Source: Flavobacteriaceae bacterium
Lineage (GTDB): Bacteria > Bdellovibrionota > Bacteriovoracia > Bacteriovoracales > Bacteriovoracaceae
DNA: 64,000 nt
NCBI GenBank assembly: GCA_964215955.1
Contig: CAXPDR010000029.1
Coordinates: 1,073 to 65,072 of the forward strand
Direction: 5' to 3'
Shown: piece after piece, positions 13,260 to 40,763 of the stretch
How positions within the stretch are numbered: position 1 is the stretch's first letter
Layout of the letters: each line of letters opens with the position of its first letter
Notes under the pieces: model-generated
Told to the model about the DNA's origin: nothing
Databases searched by the model: none
Seen by the model: only the letters and a program-made list of their open reading frames with translations
Translations under genes and position numbers: made by a program

Positions 13260-13287
13260 TAAAACTTATCTATAATAGTGCCGATAA
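13260..13287 (+). promoter_or_regulatory. sigma-28 (FliA)-type promoter, TAAA-N16-GCCGATAA
   Basis: TAAA at 13260-13263 and GCCGATAA at 13280-13287, followed by the AAAGGAG SD at 13298 and a start at 13304/13313. Confidence 0.55.
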
Positions 13288-13303
13288 GCTTTAAAATAAA
13301 GGA

Positions 13304-13684
13304 GTGAAATACTTGGTAATTTTAAAAACATTCTTACTCATTGGTTTAAGCCTTTTACTTTCCTGTGGAAGTGAGATTCAAGTATCACAATTTACAGAGG
13401 ATCAATCAGTTCTCGATGTGAGGGTAGAGCAACTTTCTACTCAGGCAGATCCAACGAAATCAGCTAATATTTACTTTAATGTTTATTTTTCTAATCCCAT
13501 CGAATCAAAAACTTTTGGTGCTGATGATATTATCCAAGATGGAACATCTTCTAGAATTATTTGGGATGTAATTCATGTCTCAGAGGGAAAACACTTTATT
13601 GTCATTGGTACAGGCCCAATGACTAATGGAACTTTTATTTTAAACAGTACTGACACTCCGTACATTAGATTATGGAGATGTTAA
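13304..13684 (+). CDS. lipoprotein with Ig-like surface domain, possibly the 5' part of a frameshifted gene
   Basis: Lipobox LLLSCGS. TTG 13313, 8 nt after the AAAGGAG SD, is the more likely start. The pattern ADPTKSANIYFNVYFSNPIESKTFGADDI is typical of bacterial Ig-like surface-repeat domains. A sigma-28-type promoter lies just upstream. Confidence 0.55.
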   Translation: MKYLVILKTFLLIGLSLLLSCGSEIQVSQFTEDQSVLDVRVEQLSTQADPTKSANIYFNVYFSNPIESKTFGADDIIQDGTSSRIIWDVIHVSEGKHFIVIGTGPMTNGTFILNSTDTPYIRLWRC

Positions 13685-13691
13685 TGGAGAT

Positions 13692-13889
13692 TTGGGTACA
13701 AGCTGTTCTGTTTCCGGCCTTGTGAATGTTACCGAAACAACTGGTTGTTCTTATGATGGATCTGGTGTTTGTACGGTGGGAGTCACTGGGTTGTTAAATT
13801 ATACAGGGGCCGCAAATTTTGATTTTACTATTTCTGATATTGATGGAGTATCTGAATTGGCAACAGCGAATATTACAATTAATCCTTAG
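13692..13889 (+). CDS. cadherin/Ig-like domain fragment, probably the 3' part of the preceding gene in the +1 frame
   Basis: This frame is open from 13644 (…LDYGDVNGDLGTSCS…) and ends in a typical Ig-like domain terminus, ANFDFTISDIDGVSELATANITINP. It has no signal peptide and no well-spaced SD of its own. Confidence 0.35.
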   Translation: MGTSCSVSGLVNVTETTGCSYDGSGVCTVGVTGLLNYTGAANFDFTISDIDGVSELATANITINP

Positions 13890-14301
13890 TTTTAAAACCC
13901 TTAATAGAGTTATTATAAATATCTGTGAGTTCACTAAAATAATCTCCAGATCTTAAAATGAGCTCTTTTACTTCACCTTCATCCTTTGATTCTTTGAGAG
14001 TCTTTTTTAGTTTGAATATAGGCCCAGCTATTTTATGGGTTTTAAAAATTAAAAGAACGTAGATAATGCCTAAACTTAATAAGGCAAAGAGGCTGAGGAA
14101 TATAATATAATGATTTCTAAAATTATTAAGCTTTGTTGCGATTTCATTATTTGAGACAAATTCCAAAATATCATTTGACCAGTATACAATGGATCCAATG
14201 AGGAATAAGTTTTGAATCAAAAAAATCGCCAATATGAAGAACGTAAAGTTCAGTTGAAATTTTTTATCTACTAAGACTAAAAGTCTTCTGTATGGATGCA
14301 T
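13879..14301 (-). CDS. small two-TM membrane protein with HAMP-like linker
   Basis: Two hydrophobic helices are followed by FKTHKIAGPIFKLKKTLKE, a HAMP-like amphipathic segment. It lies 11 nt downstream of the 14313-15167 gene. Confidence 0.5.
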   Translation of the reverse strand: MHPYRRLLVLVDKKFQLNFTFFILAIFLIQNLFLIGSIVYWSNDILEFVSNNEIATKLNNFRNHYIIFLSLFALLSLGIIYVLLIFKTHKIAGPIFKLKKTLKESKDEGEVKELILRSGDYFSELTDIYNNSIKGFKTKD

Positions 14302-14312: not shown

Positions 14313-15167
14313 TTACCTTAAAAGGCTAACTAAATCATTTAGTTCACCGGCCAAGTCTTCATGGTAGATGAATTTCATTTCATTACCAATTTTAATGATA
14401 TTATCAGTGTTCCATTGTATTTTTACAACCTCATCTTTTTTATTATTACTGAACTCAAATGCAAGGACATTATGAAGATCTGGAGTGAGTAGTCTATTGT
14501 CTAAAATTCTATCGGAGTAAAGAAAACAATTTTTATCAATCCATTTCTTAACCTTTTGCCCATCTATAATACTTGAAATATGACGACCAGTTTTATCTAA
14601 CTTTATCCATTCATTTTTTTTCTTAACTATTTTAAAACCATTAAGGCTTATTGAGGTGGGGCTTGAGCTACACCATTTTATTTTTTCATCCTTAAAGCTT
14701 TTTGAACCGGTTAAAAATAGGGATCTCTCTTGGGTTCCAAGACGCCCTCCTTGTCCAGCAAGGGGACCATTTTCAAAGCGTATAATTTCACCATTAGAAG
14801 AGATATTCCAAACTTCATGATTTTCGTGTTTTAATTTTATTTTAATGACGGCGTTTGGAATTTTATCAATTGGATATGCTTTTACTGATGAAAGAAAACT
14901 TAAGCGATCTTGAATTGAGTTTGGAGAGTGGTTATGGCCATTCCATTTTCCGAGTCTATTATTTCTTTTAAAAATCTTTTCTTCATTATAGGTTTGAAAG
15001 GAAAACTCAATTACCGCGTCTGGGTGAAAATTTAACTTCTTACTAAAACCAGTTAAAGGAAGTTCTTTTTCACTAAAACTCTGATGGGAGAGGTTAAAAA
15101 AGTAGACGAGTAGTCCAATTAGCCCGACAAGAGAAAAAGATAAAAAAGTGAACAAATGCTTTTTCAT
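14313..15167 (-). CDS. membrane-anchored or secreted hypothetical protein
   Basis: 284-aa ORF with an N-terminal hydrophobic anchor (FTFLSFSLVGLIGLLVYFF). I recognised no family. Confidence 0.5.
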   Translation of the reverse strand: MKKHLFTFLSFSLVGLIGLLVYFFNLSHQSFSEKELPLTGFSKKLNFHPDAVIEFSFQTYNEEKIFKRNNRLGKWNGHNHSPNSIQDRLSFLSSVKAYPIDKIPNAVIKIKLKHENHEVWNISSNGEIIRFENGPLAGQGGRLGTQERSLFLTGSKSFKDEKIKWCSSSPTSISLNGFKIVKKKNEWIKLDKTGRHISSIIDGQKVKKWIDKNCFLYSDRILDNRLLTPDLHNVLAFEFSNNKKDEVVKIQWNTDNIIKIGNEMKFIYHEDLAGELNDLVSLLR

Positions 15168-15450
15168 ATATAGATCCTAGAATCATTAATATATTTGTTT
15201 TGGAATTATTCCTTACTATTTTACATTGTAATTGGGATATTTTAAATTCCAAAAATTTAGGGCATTTGTTCTTTTTAAGTCAAGAGGTGCCTTGTTTATG
15301 TGCTTTCCTTTAGGTTGTGAAGTATTTAACTATTCGCTTTTTCAAAGGTATTGGTCTGTAATACATATTTGACAGAAAAAATTGGCGAAATAATTAAGTT
15401 AAACAATAGGGGTTTATTCTGTAAATGGATAGAACTAGTCCATTTAACGT

Positions 15451-15477
15451 TAAATTTTAGTCACTTATAGCCGATAA
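15451..15477 (+). promoter_or_regulatory. sigma-28 (FliA)-type promoter, TAAA-N15-GCCGATAA
   Basis: TAAA at 15451-15454 and GCCGATAA at 15470-15477, a perfect match to the enterobacterial FliA -35/-10 core and spacing. It lies 65 nt upstream of the GLUG paralog 1 ATG. Confidence 0.65.
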
Positions 15478-15541: not shown

Positions 15542-18500
15542 ATGAAATTTATTAATTTTGCGTTTTTAATTTTGACTTTTAATTTTGTTTCTTGTTCTCA
15601 AGGGCCTGGAAAAACTAATGTCAAAATATCCCTGGCAGCAATAAGTGGAAGTGAAAAATTCCCTGGTGGACTTTTTCTTTATGGGAAAAATAAATCAATT
15701 CCAGATATGGGTTTTGCCAGAAAAGTAAATGCAGATGATACTCTTGAGTTAGAACTTGAAAATGGTGACTGGGGTTTTGTGGTCATGGGGTGGGACGGTT
15801 CTCAATACTATGAGGGAAATGCATTTTGTGATGCTATGGCAAAAAAACTTGATGGTGCTGAAGTCAGTCTTTCTTTGGAAGCGACTAGGGCCAAATGTAG
15901 TCCAAGATATATAAATGGTACGAATGAGCTTTACAATGGATTTTATTCTTTAAAAATTCATACTTGTGCAGGCATAAGAGATCATATTGCGAATGGAGAA
16001 CCAATTCCTTCTAACTTTAAATGTGATGGTAGCATGGATATATTTGACGGAGGAATGAAGTCTTTTAAAGTTTACTTGGCTGAGTTTATGCCAGGAGAAG
16101 GGGAGCGTTTTTCAAGTGAGTCACGTTGTTTGACTACAACAAATTCCACAACTCCTGCTTCTGTTAATCTTCCTCTTGGATCAGATAAAATAAAGACTGC
16201 TGTATTGATCAAAGGATACTCAGATAGTTCTTGTACTTCAGAAGTTAAAAAATACGTTTTTAGAGATGGTATCAAATTTCCTGAGGATGATTTTAATGCC
16301 GCAGCAGTGCTAGATAGTGTAACAAAAACGGTAAATCTTTTTGCTCATGCTAAGTTGTGTAATGAGGCGCAAAAAAACTCACCAGTTTTTGCTGCAAGCT
16401 CAGACACAGATAATGATGGCTTGAGTGATACTCATTTAATTTGTACACCTACTCAGTTTGCAAGTATAGATGGTTTTCCAACTGATAATTTTATATTAGG
16501 TGCTGATATTGATATGAGTGGGTTGAACACAATAACGAGCACATTTTCAGGTAATTTCGATGGGCAAAATTATAGATTGTACGATGGTGTACAACCCATA
16601 TTTCAAGAAGTCTCAGCAAGTGGTACTGATATAAGAATTGAAAATTTAATTATAGATAATTTTCAGATAGATTATAATTTTGAACCTTCAACGAATACAC
16701 TTGGGATACTTGCCAATCAAAGCTATCCATCAGGTGGAAAATTAGAAATAACTAATTTGTATTTTAACTCGAATAATAAAATAGAAATCTCTGTGGCTAA
16801 CGGTGGAACTATTTCAACCAATACGTATCTTGGGGGATTAATTGGAGATGTCCAAGTTCAAACTAGTGGAAAATTAGAAGTTCGTGACATAAAAATGAAT
16901 GGTTTAGTTAGGGCTTATGATGACAATATTAGAGTTGGAGGTGTGTTTGGTCGCTTTAAAAATACCAGTGGTGAAAAACCAAAAGTTGAATCAAGCCGCG
17001 TTGGAACCTCTTCAGAAAAAATGATGATTCAAGGTTATCAAAAAATCGGTGGTATCGCTGGACAGATACAAGATGCAGAAGTTGTTCAAAAAACAGCGGT
17101 TTTTGCAAAGCTTAAAGGAAAGGATTTTGTAGGTGGGATTGTTGGTGATGCACTTGATGGAACTGAAATTAGAGATGCAAAAACAGATATTGAATATGTA
17201 CCATTCGATAGCTCTAACTCAAGAGTTGGTGGTATTATTGGTGGAATCGCAGGTGATTTCTCTGTAAAAGTAGATGGGGTCATGGCAAATTTGGTTGTCC
17301 TTGAGCCTACTGGGACTAAAAAAGTAGACCAATTAGGTGGTATTATTGGTGGAAAAAATTTTGGTTCTGGAGCTGTTAATCCTTTTCAAATTTCAAATTC
17401 AAAAGCCATTGTTGATTTTAATGTTAATGGACAATCTCATGGGGGATTGGTTGGAAGTCAATCTGTTACAAATGGAACACGAGATGAAATTAGAAATTCA
17501 ATTGCTATGGGGAGCTTACTTGAATCAAGTAGGGTAACGTCGAATATAAATAAAGGTGGATTCGCAGGGGACTCAAGTAACCTTAAGATCGAAATGTCAG
17601 TTGCAAGTTTTACTAGTATTGAAGGAGACCGACAATTAGGTGGAGGGATTGGTTATAGTAATAACACAATTTTAAATGAATCCCATATCAAAGGACATGT
17701 GGAATGTTTAAAAAATACTGCTTATCTTTCGTGTGGTGGTATTACTGGTCTAAATAACGATTCATTTAATACTGGGCACTTTGAAGACCTTTATGTGGAT
17801 GTAAGTCTGAATGTTCCAAACTTTGATGTAGATGGTAATAGTGGTTGTAGTCTTCAGAAGTGTGGACGACTTGCTGGAAATAATCTTTCTTCTTATATGA
17901 GTTTTGAGAGAATTTATCTGGTACAAAGCCAAATGCTAGATATGAATGAAGCAGATATTAGTTTTAATACAGGATCAGGGAATGTGACTCCAGGTGATCA
18001 CATAGACAATTTACAAACTGATGATTCCACAACTTGTAATGGAGCCATCCTAGGAAAATTTGATAATTCTCATGGTATTTTTTCCTCTTGTGGTTTATTA
18101 TTTGAAAAGCAGTGGCGAAGCTATGGTTTTGCGGGTGAGTACCTTGCTGGGAATTGGATTGAACCGTTTGAAATCTATTCAACTGTTGAATGGAATAATA
18201 TTAAAGCCGATGCTTTCTTAGTTCAACAGACTTTTAAGCTAATGGATGATTTAGATTTTGCCAGTGGAACTTTTGAACCTATTGGGTCAATTTCCAATCC
18301 TTTTTCGGGAAGAATTATTCCGAATGGGAAGACTTTGAAAAGAATTAATTTCACAGCCGGAAATGATAATGCTGGTATCTTTAATGCCACAGGAAATGGT
18401 GCAAGTATAGGTTGGTATAATGATCCTCTTAAAATTTTTGATATGACGATTGATTGTACTTCTCAATTAAACTGTGGAGTCATTGGCCAAGCACAAGATA

Positions 18501-19195
18501 CGAATTTATTTGTTGTGGTTAAAGATGGAGATGTTTACGGTACTGGTGATAATTATGGGGGCTTAGTTGGGCTTGGAGTAGAAAGGATTAGTATTAATAA
18601 CTCTGGTTATGAAGGAAAGGTCCACGGGAATAGTAAAGTCGGAGGACTTGTTGGCTTTTTAAGTAATGGTGGTTCTGGTGGTGATCATCAAATTAAAAAT
18701 TCTTTTGTTAGAGCAAAGTTAATTCAAGCTGATGGAGGTTCAAGTTATAGTGGAGGATTTGTTGGTTTAATTAATTTAAATAATGAAGAATTGGAGATTG
18801 AAAACTCTTATCTTAAGTTCATAAACACTGGTATAGATAACTTTAAAGGAGACATAGCTGGCTTATTAATGGGTGGGATGAATTCAGGTTATAAGCTTAA
18901 GAATATTTTTGCTAATACAAAATATTTATCTCTGGCTTCTGGAACTACCTTATATAAAGGAGCATGGAATTTAGGTTCTGCGACTGACAACGGGAGAAGC
19001 TACACCCTTGTTGAGCCGGTTGCTAGAGGATATAGTGTTTCATCGACAGCTATGGATCCGAACTTTCCACTTGTTTCTAGAGAAGCCGATCTTAATACAG
19101 ATATGTACAGAAGAGACGGTGGTGGAAGCGTGTGGTATCAAGATGTGAACGGAGAAGTCTTTCTCGCTTGGGAAAAGGCACTTGGTTTAAAATAG
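15542..19195 (+). CDS. giant GLUG-repeat surface lipoprotein (paralog 1)
   Basis: Lipobox FNFVSCSQ. At least 13 GGhhG (GLUG-type) repeats, e.g. YLGGLIGDV, KIGGIAGQI, RVGGIIGG, KVGGLVGF. Pre-repeat motifs FSGNFDGQNY and NPFSGRIIPNGK. The N-terminal domain is homologous to the 36738-40580 product. Confidence 0.75.
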   Translation: MKFINFAFLILTFNFVSCSQGPGKTNVKISLAAISGSEKFPGGLFLYGKNKSIPDMGFARKVNADDTLELELENGDWGFVVMGWDGSQYYEGNAFCDAMAKKLDGAEVSLSLEATRAKCSPRYINGTNELYNGFYSLKIHTCAGIRDHIANGEPIPSNFKCDGSMDIFDGGMKSFKVYLAEFMPGEGERFSSESRCLTTTNSTTPASVNLPLGSDKIKTAVLIKGYSDSSCTSEVKKYVFRDGIKFPEDDFNAAAVLDSVTKTVNLFAHAKLCNEAQKNSPVFAASSDTDNDGLSDTHLICTPTQFASIDGFPTDNFILGADIDMSGLNTITSTFSGNFDGQNYRLYDGVQPIFQEVSASGTDIRIENLIIDNFQIDYNFEPSTNTLGILANQSYPSGGKLEITNLYFNSNNKIEISVANGGTISTNTYLGGLIGDVQVQTSGKLEVRDIKMNGLVRAYDDNIRVGGVFGRFKNTSGEKPKVESSRVGTSSEKMMIQGYQKIGGIAGQIQDAEVVQKTAVFAKLKGKDFVGGIVGDALDGTEIRDAKTDIEYVPFDSSNSRVGGIIGGIAGDFSVKVDGVMANLVVLEPTGTKKVDQLGGIIGGKNFGSGAVNPFQISNSKAIVDFNVNGQSHGGLVGSQSVTNGTRDEIRNSIAMGSLLESSRVTSNINKGGFAGDSSNLKIEMSVASFTSIEGDRQLGGGIGYSNNTILNESHIKGHVECLKNTAYLSCGGITGLNNDSFNTGHFEDLYVDVSLNVPNFDVDGNSGCSLQKCGRLAGNNLSSYMSFERIYLVQSQMLDMNEADISFNTGSGNVTPGDHIDNLQTDDSTTCNGAILGKFDNSHGIFSSCGLLFEKQWRSYGFAGEYLAGNWIEPFEIYSTVEWNNIKADAFLVQQTFKLMDDLDFASGTFEPIGSISNPFSGRIIPNGKTLKRINFTAGNDNAGIFNATGNGASIGWYNDPLKIFDMTIDCTSQLNCGVIGQAQDTNLFVVVKDGDVYGTGDNYGGLVGLGVERISINNSGYEGKVHGNSKVGGLVGFLSNGGSGGDHQIKNSFVRAKLIQADGGSSYSGGFVGLINLNNEELEIENSYLKFINTGIDNFKGDIAGLLMGGMNSGYKLKNIFANTKYLSLASGTTLYKGAWNLGSATDNGRSYTLVEPVARGYSVSSTAMDPNFPLVSREADLNTDMYRRDGGGSVWYQDVNGEVFLAWEKALGLK

Positions 19196-19220: not shown

Positions 19221-19257
19221 TATATTATCCTCAAACTAATAATTTGAGGATAATATA
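19221..19257 (+). promoter_or_regulatory. perfect 15-bp stem / 7-nt loop hairpin sequestering the metG SD and start codon
   Basis: tatattatcctcaaa (19221-19235) and tttgaggataatata (19243-19257) are exact reverse complements. The right arm contains GAGGA (19246-19250) and the A of ATG 19257. Confidence 0.6.
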
Positions 19258-20954
19258 TGAAGCACTTAGTCACGTCTGCACTACCTTACGCTAATGGACC
19301 TATTCACTTTGGACATATTGCTGGAGTTTATTTACCAGCTGATATCTATACGAAACATAGAAAATTAAAAGGTGAAAAATGTATTCATATTAGTGGTTCT
19401 GATGAACATGGTGTGGCGATTATGCAAAATGCTCAAAAAGCGGGGAAGTCGTATAAAGAGTATGTTGACGAGTGGAATCAAGAGCATTTCGAGCTATTTA
19501 AAAAATATGGAATCGAATTTGATTTTTTTGGACAGACTTCTGAGAAGTACCATGAGGAAGAAGTATTAAAGTGGTTTGATGAGTTGCATGCTAAAGGTTT
19601 TATTGAAAAGAGGGCCGAAGAGCAGCTTCAGTGTCAGGATTGTCATAATTATCTTCCAGATCGTTTTGTGGAAGGGACTTGTTATGTTTGTGACTATGAA
19701 GAAGCAAGAGGAGATGAGTGCCCTAATTGTGGAGAGTGGATTGATGCTGTAAAGCTTAAAAACCCTACATGTAAGTTTTGTGAATCAAAAAATATTGAAG
19801 TTAAGTCTGTAGATCAGTGGTATTTGATGCTTTCAAAATATCATAAGGAATTTAGAGAGTGGTTTGAAGGTGTTTCTCCTACTTGGAGAAAAACGGTGAC
19901 TAGCTTTGTTGATTCTTTAACTAAAGAAGAAATGGTTGATCGTGCGATTACCAGAGATTTAGACTGGGGAATTGATGTTCCGTTAGCTGAGGCGAAAGGG
20001 AAGAAACTATATGTGTGGTTTGACGCGCCAATTGGGTATGTTTCAAATACCAAAGAGTTTTTAAAGAAAACTGAATCAAGTGATGATTATATAAAAGATT
20101 GGTGGCAAGCAGAAGATACTGTGATCACTAATTTTATTGGTAAAGATAATATCATTTTTCATGCGATTATCTTTCCTATGATGAGCCTTGCTAGTGGCAG
20201 GGCCAATGCGGTTAAAAGTCTTCCAGCGAATCAATATGTAAATTTGGAAGGAAAGCAATTTTCTAAGTCTAAGGGATGGTATGTAGACGCTCATGGTGCT
20301 GTGGATGAATTCGGAGCAGATGCTCTAAGATATTATCTAACAACACTTATCCCTGAGAGTAATGATTCTAGTTATACTTGGGAAGGATTTGAAGCTAAGA
20401 TTAATAATGAGCTTGCTAATAATATTGGAAATTTTGTCAATCGTGGAATGACTTTTTTCTATAAGAATTGGAAAGAAGGTATTAGTGAGGATAAGTTTTT
20501 AAGCTTTTATGAAACAGAAGCATTTAAAGATTTAAAAGTTCAAGTTGCTACGATTAATGAAACTCTAGATAATATTCAAGTTAAAAGAGCACTTGAACAA
20601 ATTATGCATTTAGGTCAAACTGCAAATACATTCTTTTCAGATAATGCTCCTTGGGCGCAAATTAAAGAAGATAATGATGCGGCAGCAACGACAATCGCTC
20701 ACTCGGCTATCTATGTTTTAACTTTGAGTGCTTTATTAACTCCATATCTTCCGACCCTTTCATCTCAAATTAAAGAGTATTTTGGTGGTTTATCAGATGA
20801 AGTCGTTAAAGATCTATACACTGGAGAATTTGAGCTTTTAAAGGACTTTGTGAAAGGTGGAGTCCAAATTGTTAAAAAGCCTAAGGGGCTAGTTCAAAAA
20901 ATTGAAGCTGATCGTATTAAAGAGTTAAATGAGCAGTTGAGGGCCAAGGCATAA
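19257..20954 (+). CDS. metG: methionyl-tRNA synthetase (short form, no C-terminal Trbp111-like domain)
   Basis: HIGH-type motif ALPYANGPIHFGHIAG, KMSKS-type motif KFSKSKG, and zinc knuckles CQDCHNY / CYVC / CPNC / CKFC. Confidence 0.95.
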   Translation: MKHLVTSALPYANGPIHFGHIAGVYLPADIYTKHRKLKGEKCIHISGSDEHGVAIMQNAQKAGKSYKEYVDEWNQEHFELFKKYGIEFDFFGQTSEKYHEEEVLKWFDELHAKGFIEKRAEEQLQCQDCHNYLPDRFVEGTCYVCDYEEARGDECPNCGEWIDAVKLKNPTCKFCESKNIEVKSVDQWYLMLSKYHKEFREWFEGVSPTWRKTVTSFVDSLTKEEMVDRAITRDLDWGIDVPLAEAKGKKLYVWFDAPIGYVSNTKEFLKKTESSDDYIKDWWQAEDTVITNFIGKDNIIFHAIIFPMMSLASGRANAVKSLPANQYVNLEGKQFSKSKGWYVDAHGAVDEFGADALRYYLTTLIPESNDSSYTWEGFEAKINNELANNIGNFVNRGMTFFYKNWKEGISEDKFLSFYETEAFKDLKVQVATINETLDNIQVKRALEQIMHLGQTANTFFSDNAPWAQIKEDNDAAATTIAHSAIYVLTLSALLTPYLPTLSSQIKEYFGGLSDEVVKDLYTGEFELLKDFVKGGVQIVKKPKGLVQKIEADRIKELNEQLRAKA

Positions 20955-21796: not shown

Positions 21797-21797
21797 T

Positions 21798-34000: not shown

Positions 34001-36146
34001 TTTGTAATCCAGAAAAATAATCAACACCACAATTTAAACATGAAGAGAAAGCCCCTGAGTCTACAAATATATCGTAACTTGTACCTTTCTTAACGTTAAC
34101 AACTTTAGGTGGAAGAGGTGAGGATGCATCAATATTCATAGATCCATAAATTTCATTAAAACCAACATGTGTATCTACATTGTTTGGTTTTAAATAGTTC
34201 CCATCCGTATACTCAAAAGCTGTACCTTCTTGAGCATTATTAGAAGGAACATCTCCTAAATCATAATTGAGTCCATTAATATCATAAAATTTTTGAGGAA
34301 CAGATTTAGCACTGACATAAACTGTTTCTTGAAGTGGTGCATCTGGATCATTCCTACTTGGATATACGCAAGAATAACTAGTAATCTTATCTTCTCCGTT
34401 AGTGTTTGTGATTACTGGTTTTAAGGAGCATGGATCTTCATTTGGATCACATTTACAATGCTCATCAATTTTAGCCTGAGCTTTCTCTTTTGATAGAGTT
34501 AGTTTATCTACATTTGCCGAAACAAAATAAGTAATGGTTATTTCTTGATTATCGTACACAGGGAATCTGAGAGCATCAAATAAAACGCTCTTTCCAGATA
34601 ATGACCACGTATCACTTCCTTCAGGAATAATACTTCCCCCCACATCTACAATGACGTTAAAACCAACATCGGCATAGCTTGGAAGTTTGAATTCTTGATT
34701 TCCCGACTGATGATCACTAGAGCGGCCAGGATTAGAAACTTGACCTTGTACGTAGAATTTCTTACAACGTGCTAGACTTGATCCTAACTTTTCACAAGTT
34801 CCATCGATTTTATATTTAACTGACATCGTATCATTCACAGCGTTTACAGGAAGTGCTCTATTGATACTTGCTGATTGAGCAGCTGTTAAGCTGTCATTAT
34901 TTCCACCTATCGCAACTCCAGAGTAAGGAGCAACATAAGTATCATTTGAGTAAAACCTTTCTTTAAAGATCGTTTCTCCAGCATAGGTTATTTCAACGAT
35001 ATTGTTTGGATTTGTACTTGGAACTATTGAAGAAAAATTAATATCATCTGTTTCTGCTTTAAAAGTATATGCACTTCCATTCATTAAACTGGAAGCATTA
35101 GTATAGTTATTTGTACATATAGCAAATTCATCAACTAATGGAGTTGTACAATTATAAAGGTCAGTGAGTTCTGTAAATAAGTCTGTTGCATCTTGAATGG
35201 GATCATTTGGCTCATTTGGATCAGTATTGTCATTATCATCAGATGGAATCAAATTAGGGCAGACATAAAAAATATCTTCGTAATCCTTTAATAACTCTGG
35301 TCTTGTTTGCAAAAGTTCTAAAGCTATAAGGTATTTATCACTTGTTGTATCAACTTCTGATCTCACATTCCCATGATTAACACATTGACCTGCAAGACAG
35401 CAGTTAAATCCAATAGCACTACAATTTGCATTGGTACTACAAACAGGAGATGTCTCAGTTGAAGATCCAATATTAGGAATTCTATTTAAATTTAAAAAAT
35501 TAATATTGGCATCAGTTTTTAGAATTCCCTCATAGGTATAAAGATTTAATCCCGTTGAGGAAATATTTCCGTTACAATTAGGGCAAACTTCTTCAAGACT
35601 AAAGGACGCACTTTGTTGTGAGAAATCTGAATCCACCTTACTTAGAAGTGAAGTGGATAGACAATCATTTTGATTGATTGTTTTATTATTTGGTTCCACT
35701 TGTAAGAAGTATTCTTTCCCTCCAATCGATGCATTCAAATAAGATCTAATTCTCGCTGAAGCAATGAGAATTGGTTTTGCTCCAGAGCCAGTTAAACCTT
35801 TAAATTCAACAACCAAACAGTAATTAGTTTGAGATGATATTGTTTGAGTTTTTAAAAAACTCATAAGCTGATTTCCACGAATGAGAAAAGAGTCATTGAA
35901 ATTGCTAAAAACATTTATGGTTGTCGTAGATTGTTCACTTCCTAGCTGCAAGAAATTAGTTTGTTGGGGAAGGGTTCCAGTTTGAATTTCTTCACCTGTT
36001 GTGTTGTCAGTTGATCCAGAACCTGTATTATTATTTTCTGTCACAGGTATACTTTGTCTTACCTGCTCATTGGATAAACATCCGCTTAGAATTAAAATTC
36101 CTAGGATGTTAAATAGAAAAATTTTAAGCTGTTTAAATATTCTCAT
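31062..36146 (-). CDS. giant cysteine-rich surface lipoprotein, unknown family
   Basis: 1,694-aa ORF with lipobox LILSGCLS. It has many Cys clusters including CC doublets (NCCLAGQC, HCCRETG, RMCCTGHW, FNCCVPTG, SSCCTG, ARCCLEDF, TMCCSG) and a Gly/Ser-rich C-terminal tail. Confidence 0.7.
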   Translation of the reverse strand: MRIFKQLKIFLFNILGILILSGCLSNEQVRQSIPVTENNNTGSGSTDNTTGEEIQTGTLPQQTNFLQLGSEQSTTTINVFSNFNDSFLIRGNQLMSFLKTQTISSQTNYCLVVEFKGLTGSGAKPILIASARIRSYLNASIGGKEYFLQVEPNNKTINQNDCLSTSLLSKVDSDFSQQSASFSLEEVCPNCNGNISSTGLNLYTYEGILKTDANINFLNLNRIPNIGSSTETSPVCSTNANCSAIGFNCCLAGQCVNHGNVRSEVDTTSDKYLIALELLQTRPELLKDYEDIFYVCPNLIPSDDNDNTDPNEPNDPIQDATDLFTELTDLYNCTTPLVDEFAICTNNYTNASSLMNGSAYTFKAETDDINFSSIVPSTNPNNIVEITYAGETIFKERFYSNDTYVAPYSGVAIGGNNDSLTAAQSASINRALPVNAVNDTMSVKYKIDGTCEKLGSSLARCKKFYVQGQVSNPGRSSDHQSGNQEFKLPSYADVGFNVIVDVGGSIIPEGSDTWSLSGKSVLFDALRFPVYDNQEITITYFVSANVDKLTLSKEKAQAKIDEHCKCDPNEDPCSLKPVITNTNGEDKITSYSCVYPSRNDPDAPLQETVYVSAKSVPQKFYDINGLNYDLGDVPSNNAQEGTAFEYTDGNYLKPNNVDTHVGFNEIYGSMNIDASSPLPPKVVNVKKGTSYDIFVDSGAFSSCLNCGVDYFSGLQRVFPNIFQEHGAGYTPDLVESRRRTNQGDYRADDLRFGRACFVPATMIPWTHVVNPDVNLQRQNRLKAQHFLFANGYNKDWYGFDYASLIGSFDGVKWFAIGNQRRIKAESNKLYLAINAYFGDLTISNTYEVKINEMNAILNSGSLITHDSDSDGAECQRAHFCQTDNDCIAQMGYDYTCQNVSNLTTPWPTFDTNGKEVSGSRQVSLLSLLGGSNGQAKRCVYRGVGAICEKNNFNVDSSDSYTNSNNVALHTCSHNSFCAGVTESEFNNKISRYAESPTGQNIQSFISDKTDTFGLGARNLGRPYNYYGNESIVTSIKNHFNSTKIKGLCVPGKDADNITSTENMNFTNISPREADKINNVGRTMSSTIIKDQNYFAACPATDAEGEYTHFQDISLPSSKHNQYANRANLSTNSLILDSLSNANLFNDEDTQVTKMGYHKNTCLRAPGAKCFSDFECAPNNFISTKFKSVSNFNGEISEAEEKFWEEELVCGNSQQRYQTNSIYPNPLYETYENHCCRETGKEFTYYSQPHENSSFKVVNAVGNPLLPGVNLNYNDPTRYSRTHTVYDKLIDEPSRYPAMISAAPQPSSPLALTDNNIKKYNTLHLHNQRMCCTGHWVRKFATGSNANNGGNKFTASTQQNISLETFRPLSWNPNKVPAANVIPDYNPLVMQYTCNLNDYVTTDCEVKNIAEGSDEELKYLNWFGKFELLGIPQVLIETNNDVEKPLNEDQEDIKALKLPLDNTIKDVNTTGVVDATYGGTQYYSAASYDNFEIGSGKLKKVFSENEFNCCVPTGFEVDQTTPASSCCTGTVNSVDGVARCCLEDFTDLSVYTNRYVSSEGAYFNGQEIKESEIDPTTGYIKKETVLKMASTMCCSGKAVYGSVINRLHIPIDYDNKAPDACSKTRRWAYLETLDDDVDVDGIVSRYKAGLKWNNHVYCVPSDYEEPTDPCGGGSSSGGSSGGSGGTGGGSSAIGE

Positions 36147-36379
36147 CTCTATTGTCTTTTCGTCTATTTAGGTGCCTCTTCTTAATAAATTATCCCATAG
36201 ACAGAGGCTTTTACTCTGAATTTGGCTTATCTGGTTGAAATCTTAAGGAAGCTTAAAAACAGGGCTGCAATATTTGCCTACAATTTTGGCCGGATAAACC
36301 GATACAAGTTATAGAAATTCTTATGCATAAATTTCAATGTTAGAATGAAATTACTATGATTTTAGATACGGGAGTAAGC

Positions 36380-36682
36380 ATGAAAAAAATTATCTTTTGT
36401 TTAAGTCTTGTAGGAGCAATGAGTTTTACAAGTGCTTTTGCTCAGAGCCAAGCTGACGTTATGCAGGCTTTAGAACAAATGGAAAAAAGTGGAATGTTTA
36501 CTAAAGAACAGATAGAAGGGGCTAAAAGAGAGCTGGCTGGTTGGGATGATGAGAAAATGATGAATATGGTTCAAAATGCCCGTATGCGTGCTAAGGATCC
36601 TGAAGTAAGAAAAAAGGCGATGGAAATTAAAAAGCAAATGGAAAAAGAAAAGGGAGTTGTTTTTCCTGAGACAGGTCGATGA
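36380..36682 (+). CDS. small secreted helical protein
   Basis: ATG 36380 follows a GGGAG SD. Signal peptide MKKIIFCLSLVGAMSFTSAFA. The mature part is about 80 aa and charged/helical. Confidence 0.55.
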   Translation: MKKIIFCLSLVGAMSFTSAFAQSQADVMQALEQMEKSGMFTKEQIEGAKRELAGWDDEKMMNMVQNARMRAKDPEVRKKAMEIKKQMEKEKGVVFPETGR

Positions 36683-36696
36683 AATTAACCAACCTA

Positions 36697-36735: not shown

Positions 36736-36737
36736 TT

Positions 36738-39700
36738 TCATTGTCCCACTGCAGAAGTATTTGAATCATGAGACTGAAATTCCCAATTTAACAAAAACTC
36801 ATTTCGATTATTATCATATAGTGTATCTGAAAAATCAAAAGAACTGACGTTGTCTAAGAAGTCCTGGGGATTAGAAAAATAAGCTGTAGCAAAAGAAGAA
36901 TCATCGGAGCTTGTTCCAATAATAAATGAATCTATTGCTATATTAGTAGAGCTTGTTCCGATAAATAAGCTATTTGAGCCAGAACCCCCAAAATTATTTC
37001 CATTGATAATAACGAGATTATTTTCAAAAATACTACTATCTGGAGCTGAACCTGCAATACCACCGTTTTGGCCGCCTGATCCGGCAGCAAAATTTGTTGT
37101 TTTTGTAAGATCAAAATCGATTATATTCGTTTTGTATATTGCGTCTGATGTTCCTTCGTAACCAATTAAGCCTCCTGCGTAAGATGATGTTTTACTTGTT
37201 ATAAGATCATCGATTTTTACTTTTGAATTTTCTACCCGAAAATAGGAAGAAGTATTTAATCCAACTAGGCCGCCAATATATCTAGCATCTCCAAGTATTT
37301 TTCCAGAAAACAAGCTATTTTTAATAAAGGTTATAGAACTGTTTATACCAATTAAACCTCCAGCATTAGTTGCAGCTCCTGAAGTAGTGTTTATTTCACC
37401 ATTAGTGATTCTTGCACTTATAAAGCTACTATGTGAAATTCCTGCAATAGATCCTAAATAGTCTAAGTCATGTGTGGTATTATTTAAAAGAAGTCCGTCA
37501 ACTAATAATGGAAGATCAGGGGTACCTGCTAAACTTATAAAACTTGAACTCGAGTTACCAAGGGTCGTGATAATCCCAATAGATTTTGAGTCACAGCTAT
37601 TGGCAGTCCAGATCGCATCATCTAAATTAATCGTTATATTTTTAAGTGTAAAAGGTAATCCTTCAGGATTAAAATTAGAGAGTAGGGTTCCTGTAAAGCT
37701 TGAACTTAGATTACAGCTAAGAAGTCCACTTAATGGGTCAACAAAGGCTCCAATTGGAACAAATTTTGTTGGGTCATTTTGAAAATCTATATTATCTGCA
37801 AGAGCAAACCCCTTATTCAGAAGAAATGCATCACTGTTAATTCTATTCCATTCATTTTCATTATGGATTTTAAAAGGCTCAAATAGATTTCCTAGTCTAA
37901 ATCTATTACCTCCAAATTCTGGATCATTAAACAAACCATAATCAATCCAATGTTCAAGAAAGAGCGGAACTGGGTCTGTTAAAATTGTTGAAGTTGCAAC
38001 CCAGTTAGGAAGACCAGTTTGATAACTCAGATCAGTTATATCGTCAACTAAGATGGAGCTTTTGCCTGAAACTCCACTTATAGTAGAGTAGTTACTTGAG
38101 GAGGTTTTAATTTCTGGAGCAATTGCACCACTACTTCCACCTAGAGAATAGTATCCGGCTGTGTTGACTACATTTGTTTCGATTAATGAACCAAGAATAC
38201 TTACAAATTGAACAGGTCTTGCTGGAAAAGTTTGAAGAGCATTTATATTTTCACCAATTACAAAGCCGCATTGTTTTGTCGAGCTAGCACTGTCACAGTT
38301 ATCAGCTATGACTTCAATATTGGCAATAACTTTAGAGTGCTCAACTCTTCCTGAAGTTCCGTTATAACCAGTAATTCCCCCAACGGCGAAATCGCCACCT
38401 TCACTAGTTGCATCTAAATTAAGATTTTCAATATTTGCAAAGCATTCAGAAATTAAACCTAGGTTTTTACCTGTGATTCCGCCAAGGTTATCTCCTCCTG
38501 TTAATTCTTTAAAATTAGCAATGGAAAACCTAATTACGTTTGAAGTATTTTGATTATATCCCACGAGGCCACCTCGATTGTCATTAACTAAATCAATGGG
38601 CGATACTATTTTGATTATCCCCATTGCAATTGAGTGTGTGATATTAACACCACCGAGAAATGAGTGTGTTGCTCCATCATTCATAACCCCAATGAGTCCA
38701 CCCACATTACTTCCATTAAAGTCAAAATAGACAATTGTTCCTACATTATTAATCAGATTTGCTGATGTTTCAGTTCTTCCTACTGCGCCACCTACATTAG
38801 AAAAGGTATCATCGAAGTCGATTATTGAAAAATTTGATAAACTATGATGAATCTCAGATCCTTGAGCAGTTCCAATCAGCCCTCCAATTCCATCGCATAT
38901 ATCAGTTGCTGGGGAGGTCACAGCCGGTCCTTTTGCTTTTGAACAGCTTATTGTACTAATTGACCCATTATCATCTTCTGAAAAGATTGACCTCTCAATC
39001 ACTGAGGAAATTGCTGAACCTATGATCCCTCCTAGTTGATCTGTTCCATTTAAGTCAACTTTAGTTAAGCTGGCTCCACTTATATTTGTATTATCAGCGT
39101 ATCCGATCAAACCTCCAGTTTCTGATTGATCGGAAATAATCGTGAGATTGTGAATATCAATATCATTTAATTCTACTTCTCCTGATGGATTCGTGACTTT
39201 TCCAATTAGGCCACCGGTTGGAGATGTTGAATCCCCATTAAATGAAATAATGTTTGCGCCTTGTGAATATACTTCAATATCAGATAGATTAACTATTGCT
39301 CCTGTACTTGTTGAAATTTTTCCAATGAGACCGCCTGTCGCATTTGCCCCTGTTGAATTGACACCAATAGCTAGGCTATCGATACTTATGTTATGAAAAC
39401 GTGTATTCGTTGATGTTCCTGCTGTCACTTCATTAATTAGTGCTCCTGTATAAGGACCAGTAGTAGAAATGTTCACACCTTGAATTGTGAAATTACCAAT
39501 AAATTTTTCACCAGAAAGATTGGAGAAGTTATTAATTAAAGGCTTATCTAATCCAATAATCTTTTTATTATTACCATTAAAGTTTCCTGTGAAAGATGAA
39601 ATAGTATTAAAACCGGTGGCAGTAATATTTTTTCCGAGGATGTAGTTATTTGTTCCTGTCATCATTTCAAGTTCAGCTTTATTACAAATGACATAAGGAA

Positions 39701-40580
39701 TTGTGCCTCCGTCTCCAATCTCGAAACCGACATTATTGACAGCATATGTTGGACAAAGAGGTTGTCTTATATAAAATGTATTGGTGTTAGTTGCTATATT
39801 TGCTTTAACAAAAGAACCATAGACCGTTTGAGAACCTTCATAGAATCCACTTTTGAAATCGATCTTATCCCCAGTTCCAGCACATCCTTCTTGAGAATAT
39901 GCGATAATTGACTGAGGAATTCCTTTAAATATAAGTGGTCTAACCTGAGGATTTCTTAATACATGGTGATCGTTATTACCATCTGTAATACATGTAGATT
40001 CGAATGGATTTGATCTATTTTCAAACATCCGTTCTTCATTCGAAAAATTGACATCATAAGAAACAATTTTATAACTTTTATAAACTCCAGGTGCTTCTGA
40101 GCAATCATCACCTAAAAAAATCTCATTGTCGCCTTTGGTGCAAGAGATAAACTCTGCTGGTCTTGGACTTCCACTCGCTTCGTTATATTCACCTTCATCA
40201 CTTTTGAAAGGTTCTTCTCCACAACCATCTGTACTGGGAGTTAAATTTATATCTACAGGTGAGCCATCCAATTTTATTTCACCCTCCGTAATAAAGCATT
40301 TAGGTACTCCTGCCATCGCACTAGTGCCAGCATCCCACCCAACAGCGCCAAATTCCCATTTACCGTTATCTAAATCGACTTCATAGGTAGTGGTATTTAA
40401 TAATCTTTTAGTAAAGACAACTTTAGTATCTGGATTATGACCAAGAATATAAAGTCCACCAGGAAACTCATTGGGACCAAAAGATGCACCGAAACTAATT
40501 TTGGCCGAAGTTGTCTCTGGCTTAGGTGAGCAACTAATTAAAATTAAAAATCCAAAGATAAATATTGTTAAGTTTTTCAT
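36738..40580 (-). CDS. giant GLUG-repeat surface lipoprotein (paralog 2)
   Basis: Lipobox LILISCSP when started at ATG 40580. At least 14 GGhhG repeats (ATGGLIGKI, ETGGLIGYA, NVGGLIGVM, YIGGLVGLN ...). The N-terminal domain (KISFGASFGPNEFPGGLYILGHN) and the mid-protein module (FEPFKIHNENEWNRINSDAFL) align with paralog 1. Confidence 0.75.
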   Translation of the reverse strand: MKNLTIFIFGFLILISCSPKPETTSAKISFGASFGPNEFPGGLYILGHNPDTKVVFTKRLLNTTTYEVDLDNGKWEFGAVGWDAGTSAMAGVPKCFITEGEIKLDGSPVDINLTPSTDGCGEEPFKSDEGEYNEASGSPRPAEFISCTKGDNEIFLGDDCSEAPGVYKSYKIVSYDVNFSNEERMFENRSNPFESTCITDGNNDHHVLRNPQVRPLIFKGIPQSIIAYSQEGCAGTGDKIDFKSGFYEGSQTVYGSFVKANIATNTNTFYIRQPLCPTYAVNNVGFEIGDGGTIPYVICNKAELEMMTGTNNYILGKNITATGFNTISSFTGNFNGNNKKIIGLDKPLINNFSNLSGEKFIGNFTIQGVNISTTGPYTGALINEVTAGTSTNTRFHNISIDSLAIGVNSTGANATGGLIGKISTSTGAIVNLSDIEVYSQGANIISFNGDSTSPTGGLIGKVTNPSGEVELNDIDIHNLTIISDQSETGGLIGYADNTNISGASLTKVDLNGTDQLGGIIGSAISSVIERSIFSEDDNGSISTISCSKAKGPAVTSPATDICDGIGGLIGTAQGSEIHHSLSNFSIIDFDDTFSNVGGAVGRTETSANLINNVGTIVYFDFNGSNVGGLIGVMNDGATHSFLGGVNITHSIAMGIIKIVSPIDLVNDNRGGLVGYNQNTSNVIRFSIANFKELTGGDNLGGITGKNLGLISECFANIENLNLDATSEGGDFAVGGITGYNGTSGRVEHSKVIANIEVIADNCDSASSTKQCGFVIGENINALQTFPARPVQFVSILGSLIETNVVNTAGYYSLGGSSGAIAPEIKTSSSNYSTISGVSGKSSILVDDITDLSYQTGLPNWVATSTILTDPVPLFLEHWIDYGLFNDPEFGGNRFRLGNLFEPFKIHNENEWNRINSDAFLLNKGFALADNIDFQNDPTKFVPIGAFVDPLSGLLSCNLSSSFTGTLLSNFNPEGLPFTLKNITINLDDAIWTANSCDSKSIGIITTLGNSSSSFISLAGTPDLPLLVDGLLLNNTTHDLDYLGSIAGISHSSFISARITNGEINTTSGAATNAGGLIGINSSITFIKNSLFSGKILGDARYIGGLVGLNTSSYFRVENSKVKIDDLITSKTSSYAGGLIGYEGTSDAIYKTNIIDFDLTKTTNFAAGSGGQNGGIAGSAPDSSIFENNLVIINGNNFGGSGSNSLFIGTSSTNIAIDSFIIGTSSDDSSFATAYFSNPQDFLDNVSSFDFSDTLYDNNRNEFLLNWEFQSHDSNTSAVGQ

Positions 40581-40763
40581 AATATTCCTATCGGTCAAAA
40601 ACGACTTTTTCTAAATTATAAAGGCTTTGTTTATTGTTATGAGATTTCATGAGTTTAGGGAGTCCGAGAGGATATATTTTAGAAATCCTGACCAAAAGAT
40701 TTGGCATATTTTAATATTTCTAGATATCTAAACATGACAACTCATTTGGACGATAAAGGCTCC

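Follow-up and report, generated by a model that had tools for sequence, protein, structure and literature searches.

A conserved putative envelope gene cluster of the predatory class Bacteriovoracia with hypervariable GLUG genes at its edges

The window (the whole stretch of DNA that was analysed, 64 kb in length, from a marine predatory bacterium) contains between 13.3 and 40.6 kb a series of genes for large exported proteins, which the initial annotation had read as one surface-protein block bracketed by two inverted GLUG paralogs. The ORFs it named were all recovered with their positions and sizes, a lipobox or signal peptide is readable in each of the large proteins, and the housekeeping genes metG and uppP embedded among them were confirmed by Pfam. 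The genes of the interval are:

13304..13684, plus strand: predicted 126-aa lipoprotein with LLSC lipobox, accessory left island (sequence read)
13879..14301, minus strand: 140-aa membrane protein, left island (sequence read)
14313..15167, minus strand: protein of 284 aa, secreted or with a membrane anchor, left island, differing between strains (sequence read)
15542..19195, plus strand: GLUG1, 1,217-aa lipoprotein, paralog of GLUG2
19257..20954, plus strand: metG, methionyl-tRNA synthetase (Pfam tRNA-synt_1g, Anticodon_3)
21203..21796, minus strand: p197, protein of 197 aa with an N-terminal anchor, final gene in an operon (alignment)
21798..24524, minus strand: protease, 908-aa lipoprotein gluzincin, HEMGH ... 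GAINEGIADYF (Pfam, alignment, hhalign)
24538..27585, minus strand: h1015, 1,015-aa secreted protein, first gene of the operon (sequence read)
27794..30244, plus strand: FHA protein, 816-aa membrane protein (Pfam FHA, E=8e-10)
30245..31051, plus strand: uppP (BacA, undecaprenyl-diphosphatase; Pfam BacA, E=6e-64), abutting the FHA gene
31062..36146, minus strand: CYS, 1,694-aa lipoprotein with 53 Cys, about 50 of them invariant
36356..36682, plus strand: secreted protein of 108 aa, conservation limited to the near (marine) clade
36738..40598, minus strand: GLUG2, lipoprotein with GLUG repeats, 1,286 aa from a TTG start

Sequence comparison indicates that this interval is a mosaic, in which a conserved core has an accessory edge on either side, and that it is not one module enclosed by GLUG paralogs. 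Gene content and order in relatives show the core (21.2-36.1 kb) to be a putative envelope gene cluster common to the predatory class Bacteriovoracia. It comprises CYS, the FHA membrane protein with UppP, and the operon of h1015, protease and p197, whose genes are separated in the window by gaps of 13 nt and 1 nt. The FHA/uppP operon stands tail to tail with CYS and is divergent from the h1015 operon. Homologs come from MAGs named Bacteriovoracaceae or Halobacteriovoraceae, and proteins identical to those of the window were found in TARA and other marine assemblies. Species genomes that encode a CYS relative number 355, and within Bacteriovoracia the protein is almost universal. The order cinA > CYS > < uppP < FHA, followed by h1015 > protease > p197 >, is kept down to 34% CYS identity. 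At loci with at least 9.5 kb of sequence downstream of CYS, the protease was present in 43/45, FHA in 41/45 and uppP in 40/45 cases, and h1015 was detectable by BLAST in 38/45. Two distant loci (L062, L076) carry CYS with none of the other core genes nearby. Identity to orthologs is 34-65% for CYS and 32-61% for the protease, at rates similar to cinA and uppP, while it is 19-39% for h1015 and 22-35% for FHA; CYS is, by this comparison, a slowly evolving protein distributed across the class. On the right the core is followed in relatives by metG as a conserved neighbor. Co-conservation holds for the central genes of the block across the whole class, but the GLUG edges are missing in most relatives.

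None of GLUG1, h1015 and CYS has a match in Pfam or NCBIfam, in agreement with the initial description of these large proteins as having no assignable function. The lipobox Cys of CYS (C23) is invariant in the ortholog alignment. AF2 models of CYS are confident (pLDDT 85.9 for aa 481-1680 and 87.8 for aa 24-540), but gave no Foldseek match in the PDB at E≤1e-3, nor did a sequence search of the PDB yield a match. For the N-terminal model, Foldseek gave weak matches to phage tailspikes and depolymerases, in their N-terminal modules (E as low as 3e-4 in BFVD, and 0.056 for PDB entry 7rfo), with very low TM-scores (0.11-0.17). h1015 evolves fast, yet about 16 of its cysteines are invariant among orthologs; no match of note was obtained in Pfam, PDB or PHROG. 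A flagellin-like profile hit of h1015 in the PDB (E=0.018) vanished under hhalign (probability 0.1%).

The protein that had been called an M4-like protease is indeed a distantly thermolysin-like gluzincin, as hhalign aligned it with thermolysin at a probability of 85% (E=6e-6); against Pfam M4_C it scores below the cut-off (E=5e-4), and M4_C was found in 7/15 orthologs. H251, E252, H255, E302 and D306 are invariant and the HExxH and GAINEGIADYF motifs unchanged in orthologs, as is the lipobox Cys C28, and many other Cys of this protein, which has a Cys-containing C-terminal half, are invariant as well. With the thermolysin family (M4) carrying FTP/PepSY propeptides the protease shares HExxH followed by GAINE(G/A)I(A/S)D(Y/I)F, the motif to which the third zinc ligand belongs. 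It differs from M4 in a 27-residue insert between the two zinc-binding helices, in a Cys-containing C-terminal extension of ~350 aa, and in being a lipoprotein that lacks a propeptide in cis and stays below the Pfam cut-off. The family is also closed and small, with 161 relatives (clusters) among 1.84 billion representatives. A PepSY-like partner would here be encoded in trans and membrane-anchored: the C-terminal domain of p197 (SFEAxVDSxTGxIxxTW) is possibly PepSY-like. The PepSY model was matched in 3/15 p197 orthologs at a statistically weak E of about 0.05, and hhalign aligned the motif, in register, with the thermolysin propeptide in its PepSY part, a weak match with a probability of only 2.4%. 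As to the initial idea of a possible cognate inhibitor, the small downstream gene p197 thereby shows a PepSY-type likeness that is weak.

The FHA protein has its FHA domain at the N-terminus, then some four RDD-like TM helices, and an unassigned C-terminal domain; Pfam detected the FHA domain in 11/16 orthologs and, weakly, RDD in 2/16. This 816-aa protein had not been listed initially, although it also lies inside the block. In most loci the FHA stop and the start of uppP are between -4 and +11 nt apart. Position is the sole link between the FHA/uppP operon and the secreted proteins.

Sigma-28-type promoter-like sites were searched in the window and in relatives, where those before CYS (T[TA]A[AG]-N14-17-CCGA[TA]A) and before h1015 lay ≤150 nt upstream. 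The 64-kb window contains 6 strict matches versus 1.0 expected, a number reached by 0 of 100 shuffles. Within the interval we noted the following strict and degenerate sites:

13260..13286, plus strand: TAAA-N16-GCCGATA, ending 18 nt before the GTG at 13304 of the 126-aa lipoprotein
15450..15476, plus strand: TTAAA-N15-GCCGATA, ending 66 nt before GLUG1, also present in L004
27614..27640, minus strand: site before the h1015/protease/p197 operon, ending 29 nt before the ORF
36220..36246, minus strand: degenerate sigma-28-like site TTAAG-N16-CCAAAT before CYS (sequence read)
40589..40614, minus strand: sigma-28-like site TTAG-N16-ACCGATA, ending 8 nt before the GLUG2 ATG

The first three, all of the form TAAA-N15/16-GCCGATA, are the promoters that had been claimed for the block. 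A transcript from the last site would be near-leaderless. In relatives the motif was found upstream of CYS in 36/72 loci and of h1015 in 26/43, and was absent upstream of FHA (0/52), uppP (0/61), cinA (0/58), p197 (0/31) and two further housekeeping genes (0/59, 0/32), with 0 of about 300 for housekeeping genes overall. The sites are not peculiar to the block, since others lie outside it at 51003 (plus strand) and 58731 (minus strand), preceding unrelated secreted ORFs at 51059 and 58723. The suggested co-regulation is only partly borne out: the motif is shared by several genes of the block and recurs before CYS and the operon in relatives, but it also occurs elsewhere.

The closest known counterpart is the FliA attack-phase regulon of Bdellovibrio bacteriovorus. 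Of 140 attack-phase promoters there, 92 have TTAAG-N16-CCGATA (Karunker et al. 2013, PMC3627812). This motif is ascribed to FliA, which acts as a global attack-phase regulator and drives most attack-phase genes. Both systems share TTAAG/TAAA, a 15-16 nt spacing and (G)CCGATA, and in that obligate predator, as here, the promoter precedes non-flagellar genes for cell-surface proteins, proteases and uncharacterised products. Here, in contrast, the class is a different one (Bacteriovoracia), the promoters are predicted from the motif, and upstream of h1015 orthologs in one clade, that from freshwater, the -10 element is predominantly a GCCGAAAA variant. The passages of PMC3627812 consulted name none of the gene families of the block. 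From the motif, and by analogy with a different class (Bdellovibrionia), we infer that the genes preceded by it may depend on FliA. Because of the sites outside the block and the global role of FliA in Bdellovibrio described in those passages, the sites do not define a private regulon.

These data bear on whether the core is a functional unit at all. Its genes might be independent of each other, with an order kept by slow rearrangement and sigma-28 motifs marking scattered attack-phase genes. Amidohydrolase, NfeD, SPFH, typA, FAD protein and cinA, unrelated housekeeping genes, are equally conserved in order over a long range, and typA, cinA and metG also hold their positions in relatives (high backbone synteny in the family), so that gene order alone is no proof of functional linkage; L062 and L076, with CYS but not the other core genes, and the sites before the unrelated secreted ORFs agree with this reading. 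We nevertheless consider it rather improbable, as genes lie close together or overlap throughout the class both in the three-gene operon and in the FHA/uppP pair, and CYS, h1015 and protease have lineage restriction, many invariant cysteines and promoter type in common, whereas the interleaved housekeeping genes show none of these features.

The edges behave differently. GLUG1 and GLUG2 are paralogs, as had been proposed, and align end to end (26% identity, E=3e-58). GLUG2 matches the Pfam Glug model (E=2e-13, 50 bits, cut-off 20.5), while GLUG1 has no direct match to it and bears the name only by homology to GLUG2. From an alternative ATG at 40580 (36738..40580) GLUG2 has 1,280 aa and opens with a clean lipoprotein signal, MKNLTIFIFGFLILISC. 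Repeated GG[LI][IV]G units suggest a repeat beta-solenoid. GLUG motifs (PF07581) are known from surface proteins and the N-terminal region of M26 IgA1-protease-type zinc metalloproteases (PF05342); GLUG2 passes Glug, and GLUG1 alleles and relatives weakly match Peptidase_M26_N positions 150-250. Unlike M26 proteases, the GLUG proteins here lack the M26 catalytic domain; they are N-terminally lipidated, belong to a Gram-negative predator and have a private N-terminal domain of ~130 aa and extreme strain variability. In the left island, the 126-aa lipoprotein has no Pfam family and the 140-aa membrane protein no significant family in Pfam or NCBIfam.

Only 5 of 80 genome loci (L010, L016, L017, L022, L049) have a GLUG gene next to CYS, with either orientation occurring, and L003 has one in addition. 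Relatives mostly lack GLUG genes, and cinA there adjoins CYS; in L003 the left island is absent and uvrD adjoins metG. Conspecific contigs are 99-100% identical in the core (CYS 99.6% in L004), but GLUG1 shares only 70-76% aa identity between conspecific strains, being hypervariable in its N-terminal two thirds and conserved in the C-terminal ~400 aa. Nucleotide identity between strains is 77% over 14554-17265, the segment 17265-17998 is unalignable, and identity is 99% from 17998 onwards. The C-terminal 200 aa of GLUG2 are 27% identical in conspecific L004, i.e. a very different allele takes its place, and the 284-aa left-island protein has 86.5% aa identity in the same conspecific contigs. 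The GLUG genes are, on this evidence of sequence distribution, hypervariable lineage-specific insertions, and the GLUG bracket drops out as part of the unit, as it is missing in most relatives and strain-variable while the core stays constant.

That the whole 27-kb interval from GLUG1 to GLUG2 forms one co-regulated adhesion or predation toolkit, bracketing paralogs included, appears very improbable and is largely refuted by the comparative data. In its favor are the sigma-28-type sites, which precede the h1015 operon as well as GLUG1 and the 126-aa lipoprotein gene, and probably GLUG2, together with export signals on all large products and an arrangement constant within the species; most relatives, however, keep the core but have no GLUG genes at either edge, L003 has no left island, GLUG orientation differs between loci, the rate of evolution between strains is very different for the GLUG genes and the core, and the promoter type extends beyond the interval. 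Of the surface-toolkit interpretation there remain the co-conserved core and the shared promoters, but not the GLUG bracket or a private regulon.

To our knowledge, every representative of the lineage in culture is an obligate predator, so that 'housekeeping' and 'predation' are inseparable by distribution. The core could serve housekeeping envelope biogenesis, such as building or maintenance of the outer membrane or polar-flagellum sheath, instead of predation, a reading that we regard as unlikely. This role would fit UppP lipid-carrier recycling, the position among uppP, metG and cinA, a CYS nearly universal in the class, and the slow evolution of CYS and protease, comparable to their housekeeping neighbors. 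It would also fit the classical role of sigma-28, a flagellar sigma factor in most bacteria according to PMC3627812, but B. bacteriovorus FliA promoters extend far beyond the flagellum in the same work, no flagellar genes were found in the 64-kb window, and the sole flagellin-like signal, that of h1015, was lost under hhalign.

We favor, with moderate confidence, a conserved attack-phase envelope core combined with swappable GLUG adhesin cassettes. By analogy with the FliA-driven attack-phase genes of B. bacteriovorus, the core and GLUG products would be made in the free-swimming attack phase. They would reach the periplasm or outer membrane through Sec and the lipoprotein pathway and be stabilised by disulfides. 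The core may perform a conserved envelope task; the most likely candidate is that the protease helps to build or use an envelope structure of the attack phase, with the small PepSY-like p197 restraining or chaperoning the protease. Variable surface proteins beside conserved machinery are also seen in phage tailspike/fibre cassettes and in the chimeric fibre adhesins of B. bacteriovorus (PMC10769870); the replacement of GLUG alleles between close strains resembles swappable receptor-binding proteins, a likeness in arrangement and variability. GLUG variability could stem from phage or grazer pressure rather than prey choice. The GLUG proteins would act as swappable adhesins that set the strain-specific contact with prey or surfaces.

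The window (34% G+C) stems from a marine member of Bacteriovoracia, as identical copies of its proteins are found in MAG GCA_035092465.1 and in TARA and other marine assemblies, and the named homologs of its largest lipoprotein (CYS) belong to Bacteriovoracaceae and Halobacteriovoraceae MAGs. Cultured Bacteriovoracia are obligate predators of other bacteria. ORF reading together with Pfam/NCBIfam searches confirmed the genes that the initial annotation had described between 13.3 and 40.6 kb and had taken for one adhesion/predation toolkit bracketed by two inverted GLUG paralogs. The full gene content, to which the reading adds the FHA-domain gene, is:

13304-13684 (+), 126-aa lipoprotein
13879-14301 (-), 140-aa ORF
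14313-15167 (-), 284-aa ORF
15542-19195 (+), GLUG1
19257-20954 (+), metG
21203-21796 (-), p197, 197-aa ORF
21798-24524 (-), 908-aa HExxH lipoprotein, hereafter the protease
24538-27585 (-), h1015, 1,015-aa secreted protein
27794-30244 (+), 816-aa FHA-domain membrane protein
30245-31051 (+), uppP
31062-36146 (-), CYS, 1,694-aa lipoprotein with 53 cysteines
36356-36682 (+), 108-aa secreted ORF
36738-40598 (-), GLUG2, ATG 40580 being the most likely start

Pfam/NCBIfam matches in this block are confined to FHA, BacA, tRNA synthetase, Glug (GLUG2) and a sub-threshold thermolysin C-domain in the 908-aa protein. CYS, the protease and the GLUG proteins are predicted lipoproteins by their lipoboxes, read from the sequence as signal peptides ending in a lipobox; the lipobox cysteine is invariant in CYS (C23) and in the protease (C28). 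Rfam and tRNA scans were both empty. Matches to sigma-70 and terminator consensus were no commoner than in shuffled sequence and were therefore left out when defining transcription units.

A CYS relative is encoded in 355 genomes (scan with one genome per species). In the best 80 loci the order cinA > CYS > < uppP < FHA, then h1015 > protease > p197 >, recurs down to 34% CYS identity, often with metG next after p197. Where the sequence downstream of CYS extends for at least 9.5 kb (45 loci), the protease is present in 43, the FHA gene in 41, uppP in 40 and an h1015 that BLAST can detect in 38; CYS stands without other core genes nearby in two distant loci, L062 and L076. The related contig L003 (MetG 71% identical) shows the order GLUG-like gene, small ORF, CYS (51% identity to the window), FHA protein (24%), h1015 (27%), protease (44%), p197 (31%), metG and uvrD, without uppP at the core position and without the entire 13.3-19.2 kb island. 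Gene spacing indicates two operons, h1015/protease/p197 with intergenic gaps of 13 nt and 1 nt, and FHA/uppP, where the distance from FHA stop to uppP start is -4 to +11 nt in most loci. An apparent FHA-UppP fusion in L032 was rejected as an artefact with an ambiguous base at the junction. In L021 (13093-16242) the h1015 ortholog is split into ORFs of 357 and 592 aa, possibly a pseudogene, a frameshift or an assembly error. As to the synteny and co-occurrence on which the toolkit proposal depended, the core is co-conserved across Bacteriovoracia, but the GLUG brackets are missing from most relatives.

The housekeeping neighbours keep their gene order equally well as the core genes, a weakness common to all readings considered here. 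It leaves room for the explanation that the core genes are unrelated and merely sit on a slowly rearranging backbone, on which promoter type has a bearing. Among 140 attack-phase promoters of B. bacteriovorus, Karunker et al. (PMC3627812) found TTAAG-N16-CCGATA in 92, and they propose FliA as global attack-phase regulator of surface proteins, proteases and many unknowns. Defining a sigma-28 (FliA) site as a -35 TAAA and a -10 GCCGATAA about 15 nt apart, upstream of a gene on the same strand, we recovered the three sites claimed initially, at 13260, 15450 and 27614, which closely precede the 126-aa gene, GLUG1 and h1015. Sigma-28-type sites number 6 in the window (1.0 expected), a count reached in 0 of 100 shuffles. 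Another site (40589-40614, -) stops 8 nt short of the GLUG2 ATG, the CYS site in the window is degenerate (TTAAG-N16-CCAAAT), and two sites lie outside the block at 51003-51029 (+) and 58731-58756 (-); the former precedes an 80-aa secreted ORF (51059-51301) and the latter a 681-aa signal-peptide protein without Pfam family (56678-58723). The sites are conserved at orthologous positions in relatives, the -10 box of the freshwater clade having the GCCGAAAA form. When T[TA]A[AG]-N14-17-CCGA[TA]A was sought within 150 nt upstream of orthologs, it was present for h1015 in 26 of 43 loci and for CYS in 36 of 72, for the operon-internal protease in 2 of 47, and in none for FHA (0/52), uppP (0/61), cinA (0/58), two further housekeeping genes (0/59 and 0/32) and p197 (0/31). 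These counts tie CYS to the h1015 operon by promoter type and set both apart from their housekeeping neighbours, and we regard the backbone explanation as unlikely. Of the co-regulation initially proposed, a shared predicted promoter type stands for CYS and the h1015 operon, but the same type occurs outside the block: judged by sequence, the sites are a genome-wide regulon signal and no private regulon of the block.

The -10 box often ends within 1-25 nt of the start codon (in several CYS orthologs at 4-10 nt; loci L017-L089), a hint of mRNAs in the lineage with very short leaders or none, or else of miscalled starts. The FHA/h1015 intergenic region contains a conserved TATAAT (window 27670-27697, -; same place in L010-L027), which precedes the sigma-28 -35 box by about 30-40 nt and, in the window, has a TTGAGT 16 nt ahead of it. 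The element may be an additional operon promoter, of sigma-70 type, or part of the divergent FHA promoter.

The paralogy of GLUG1 and GLUG2 proposed initially is real and extends over their full length (26% identity, E=3e-58). GLUG2 passes Pfam Glug (PF07581) with 50.0 bits (cut-off 20.5, E=2.4e-13) and a GLUG-related ORF in L017 reaches 45 bits; GLUG1 has no Glug match even at E≤1 and is called GLUG only because of its homology to GLUG2. The lipobox is kept in all GLUG relatives as xSC or xGC after a hydrophobic stretch. None of the papers searched mentions both GLUG and Bdellovibrio. A GLUG gene adjoins CYS in 5 of 80 genome loci, on either strand. In most relatives cinA directly adjoins CYS, and receiver/cNMP-binding, LemA, M48 protease, 108-aa and GLUG genes between the two are found in the window's near clade only. 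The first three of these genes occupy window positions 40701-43920, between cinA and GLUG2/CYS; of this trio, the receiver/cNMP gene, which is oriented divergently from GLUG2, is retained most consistently.

Conspecific contigs are 99.3-100% identical to the window in MetG, p197, protease, h1015, FHA, UppP and CYS at the amino acid level, with 86.5% for the 284-aa protein and 70-76% for GLUG1. Nucleotide identity is 98-99% over 17998-36687 and 77% over 14554-17265, and 17265-17998 is unalignable; beyond 36687, the GLUG2 allele of strain L004 shares 27% identity with that of the window in its last 200 residues. These strain comparisons identify the GLUG paralogs as hypervariable accessory cassettes flanking an invariant 18.7-kb stretch. 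The paralogs, present in few loci and divergent between strains with near-identical cores, lie outside the conserved unit, and the single bracketed toolkit, though its genes and the GLUG paralogy were found as described, appears highly unlikely to us. An inversion between the paralogs was dismissed because they share only 26% amino acid identity.

A non-coding repeat of about 200-260 bp is placed between convergent gene ends at 50195-50455, after the gene of a 446-aa lipoprotein with DUF5122 beta-propeller repeats (48859-50199, outside the block), with a diverged copy between metG and p197 (20978-21165) and a fragment of it separating the 108-aa gene from GLUG2 (36697-36732). Between CYS and uppP, only 10 bp apart in the window, strains L004 and L005 carry an extra, 86%-identical copy (6273-6533). 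The repeat may be a small element that is mobile or bears a terminator. A palindrome with a 17-bp stem lies exactly between the GLUG1 stop and the metG start (19221-19257) and may act as bidirectional terminator or regulatory hairpin. Also outside the block, a large exported protein of 1,017 aa with a CBM6 carbohydrate-binding module is encoded at 58908-61961.

The CYS homologs comprise 55 full-length proteins of 1,636-1,735 aa, all without a functional name, a few matches being partial or longer; about 50 of the cysteines never vary, nor does the lipobox Cys. The CYS sequence profile gave no match in the PDB. Structure prediction, suggested initially for each of the giant proteins, yielded confident CYS models (AlphaFold2 with a 52-sequence alignment) for aa 481-1680 (mean pLDDT 85.9, pTM 0.79) and aa 24-540 (mean pLDDT 87.8, pTM 0.52), but neither matches a PDB structure at E≤1e-3. 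The N-terminal model weakly matches phage tailspike/depolymerase N-terminal modules in BFVD (E down to 3e-4, TM 0.11-0.17), a likeness between models that we treat as a lead only; a PHROGs search with CYS, the GLUG proteins and the protease gave no match. The C-terminal third of CYS (aa 1234-1593) contains six Cys-Cys doublets (CCRETG, CCTGHW, CCVPTG, CCTGTV, CCLEDF, CCSGKA), most with [TS]G 0-2 residues later, which suggests a repeated small disulfide module absent from domain libraries.

h1015 is fast-evolving (19-39% identity to orthologs) and retains its length and about 16 invariant cysteines; a homolog search with a 22-sequence profile returned only two already known proteins. A PDB profile match to flagellin 9au6 (E=0.018) raised a flagellin-like reading, for which we looked for N-terminal D0/D1 helix homology, no Sec signal and no cysteines; it was ruled out by the hhalign comparison with the Salmonella FliC N-terminus (probability 0.1%), the signal peptide and the invariant cysteines. 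The FHA protein combines a cytoplasmic FHA domain above the Pfam threshold (39.4 bits vs 20.7, present in 11 of 16 orthologs), about four TM helices, for which RDD, weakly matched in 2 of 16 orthologs, is a suggestion only, and a C-terminal domain without assigned function.

In the protease, H251, E252, H255, E302 and D306 do not vary across 41 sequences, in which HExxH and GAINEGIADYF are kept; the protein thus has the M4 zinc site of HExxH plus a downstream Glu ligand in an NExxSD-type helix. Its alignment by hhalign with thermolysin HELTH ... GAINEAISD has a probability of 85% (E=6e-6, 27-residue insert). Pfam M4_C stays below the gathering threshold (20.5 bits, cut-off 24.4), and the PDB profile search gave a non-significant bacillolysin match (E=0.3). 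A phmmer search of 1.84 billion representative proteins found 161 relatives; the best 150 of these are all ≤912 aa, align along the query and are orthologs or fragments. The Pfam miss and these few relatives make the protease a distinct gluzincin family; the M4-like label it had been given fits the zinc site but not classical M4 membership. It also differs from the thermolysin family in lacking an in-cis FTP/PepSY propeptide (by Pfam), the mature region following directly after the lipobox. p197 is membrane-anchored and ends in SFEAxVDSxTGxIxxTW. PepSY (PF03413) is the most frequent weak Pfam match among its orthologs (3 of 15, E about 0.05); hhalign brings p197 into register with the PepSY segment of the thermolysin propeptide at a non-significant probability of 2.4% (E=0.019), and the p197 profile had no significant PDB match.

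What the comparisons show is a core of exported, cysteine-rich and lineage-restricted proteins found throughout the class, two tight operons, a shared FliA-type promoter and variable GLUG flanks. By analogy with Bdellovibrio the core genes would be expressed in attack phase, and lipoboxes, signal peptides and invariant cysteines point to a location of their products in the envelope. CYS and the protease evolve at the slow pace of cinA or uppP and for that reason may have a conserved role, mechanical or enzymatic, and the GLUG proteins may be adhesins or recognition factors, because their alleles are replaced at strain level. We find this mosaic of conserved core, attack-phase envelope role and swappable GLUG cassettes somewhat probable as a whole. 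Doubtful is the further step that CYS, h1015, the protease and p197 together make up a new Bacteriovoracia attack-phase envelope machine, mostly of unknown folds and serving prey contact or entry, with the GLUGs as exchangeable prey-recognition cassettes swapped among strains as phage receptor-binding proteins are. The predicted envelope location and the housekeeping-like rates would also suit ordinary envelope or flagellar-sheath upkeep, to be weighed with the FliA-type promoters of CYS and h1015; this we consider doubtful as well. No named system matches the cluster, as the initial annotation had it. Returning to the mosaic, what comes nearest to it is the FliA attack-phase regulon of Bdellovibrio, here with new protein families in a new arrangement.

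Prey recognition and entry are far less studied in marine and freshwater Bacteriovoracia than in Bdellovibrio. What was a 27-kb block of unknowns now resolves into two concrete gene sets: four co-located class-restricted families, conserved like housekeeping genes and, by analogy, probably attack-phase expressed, one of them a 1,694-aa protein of no known fold, and two hypervariable lipoprotein cassettes as candidates for strain-specific prey-range determinants. CYS relatives are present on contigs named Halobacteriovorax and Bacteriovorax stolpii, and orthologs in lineages with cultured representatives make genetics feasible. If the core serves ordinary envelope upkeep, several large orphan families would still gain context. 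Specialists are offered candidate invasion machinery and prey-range determinants, whose function is conjectural.
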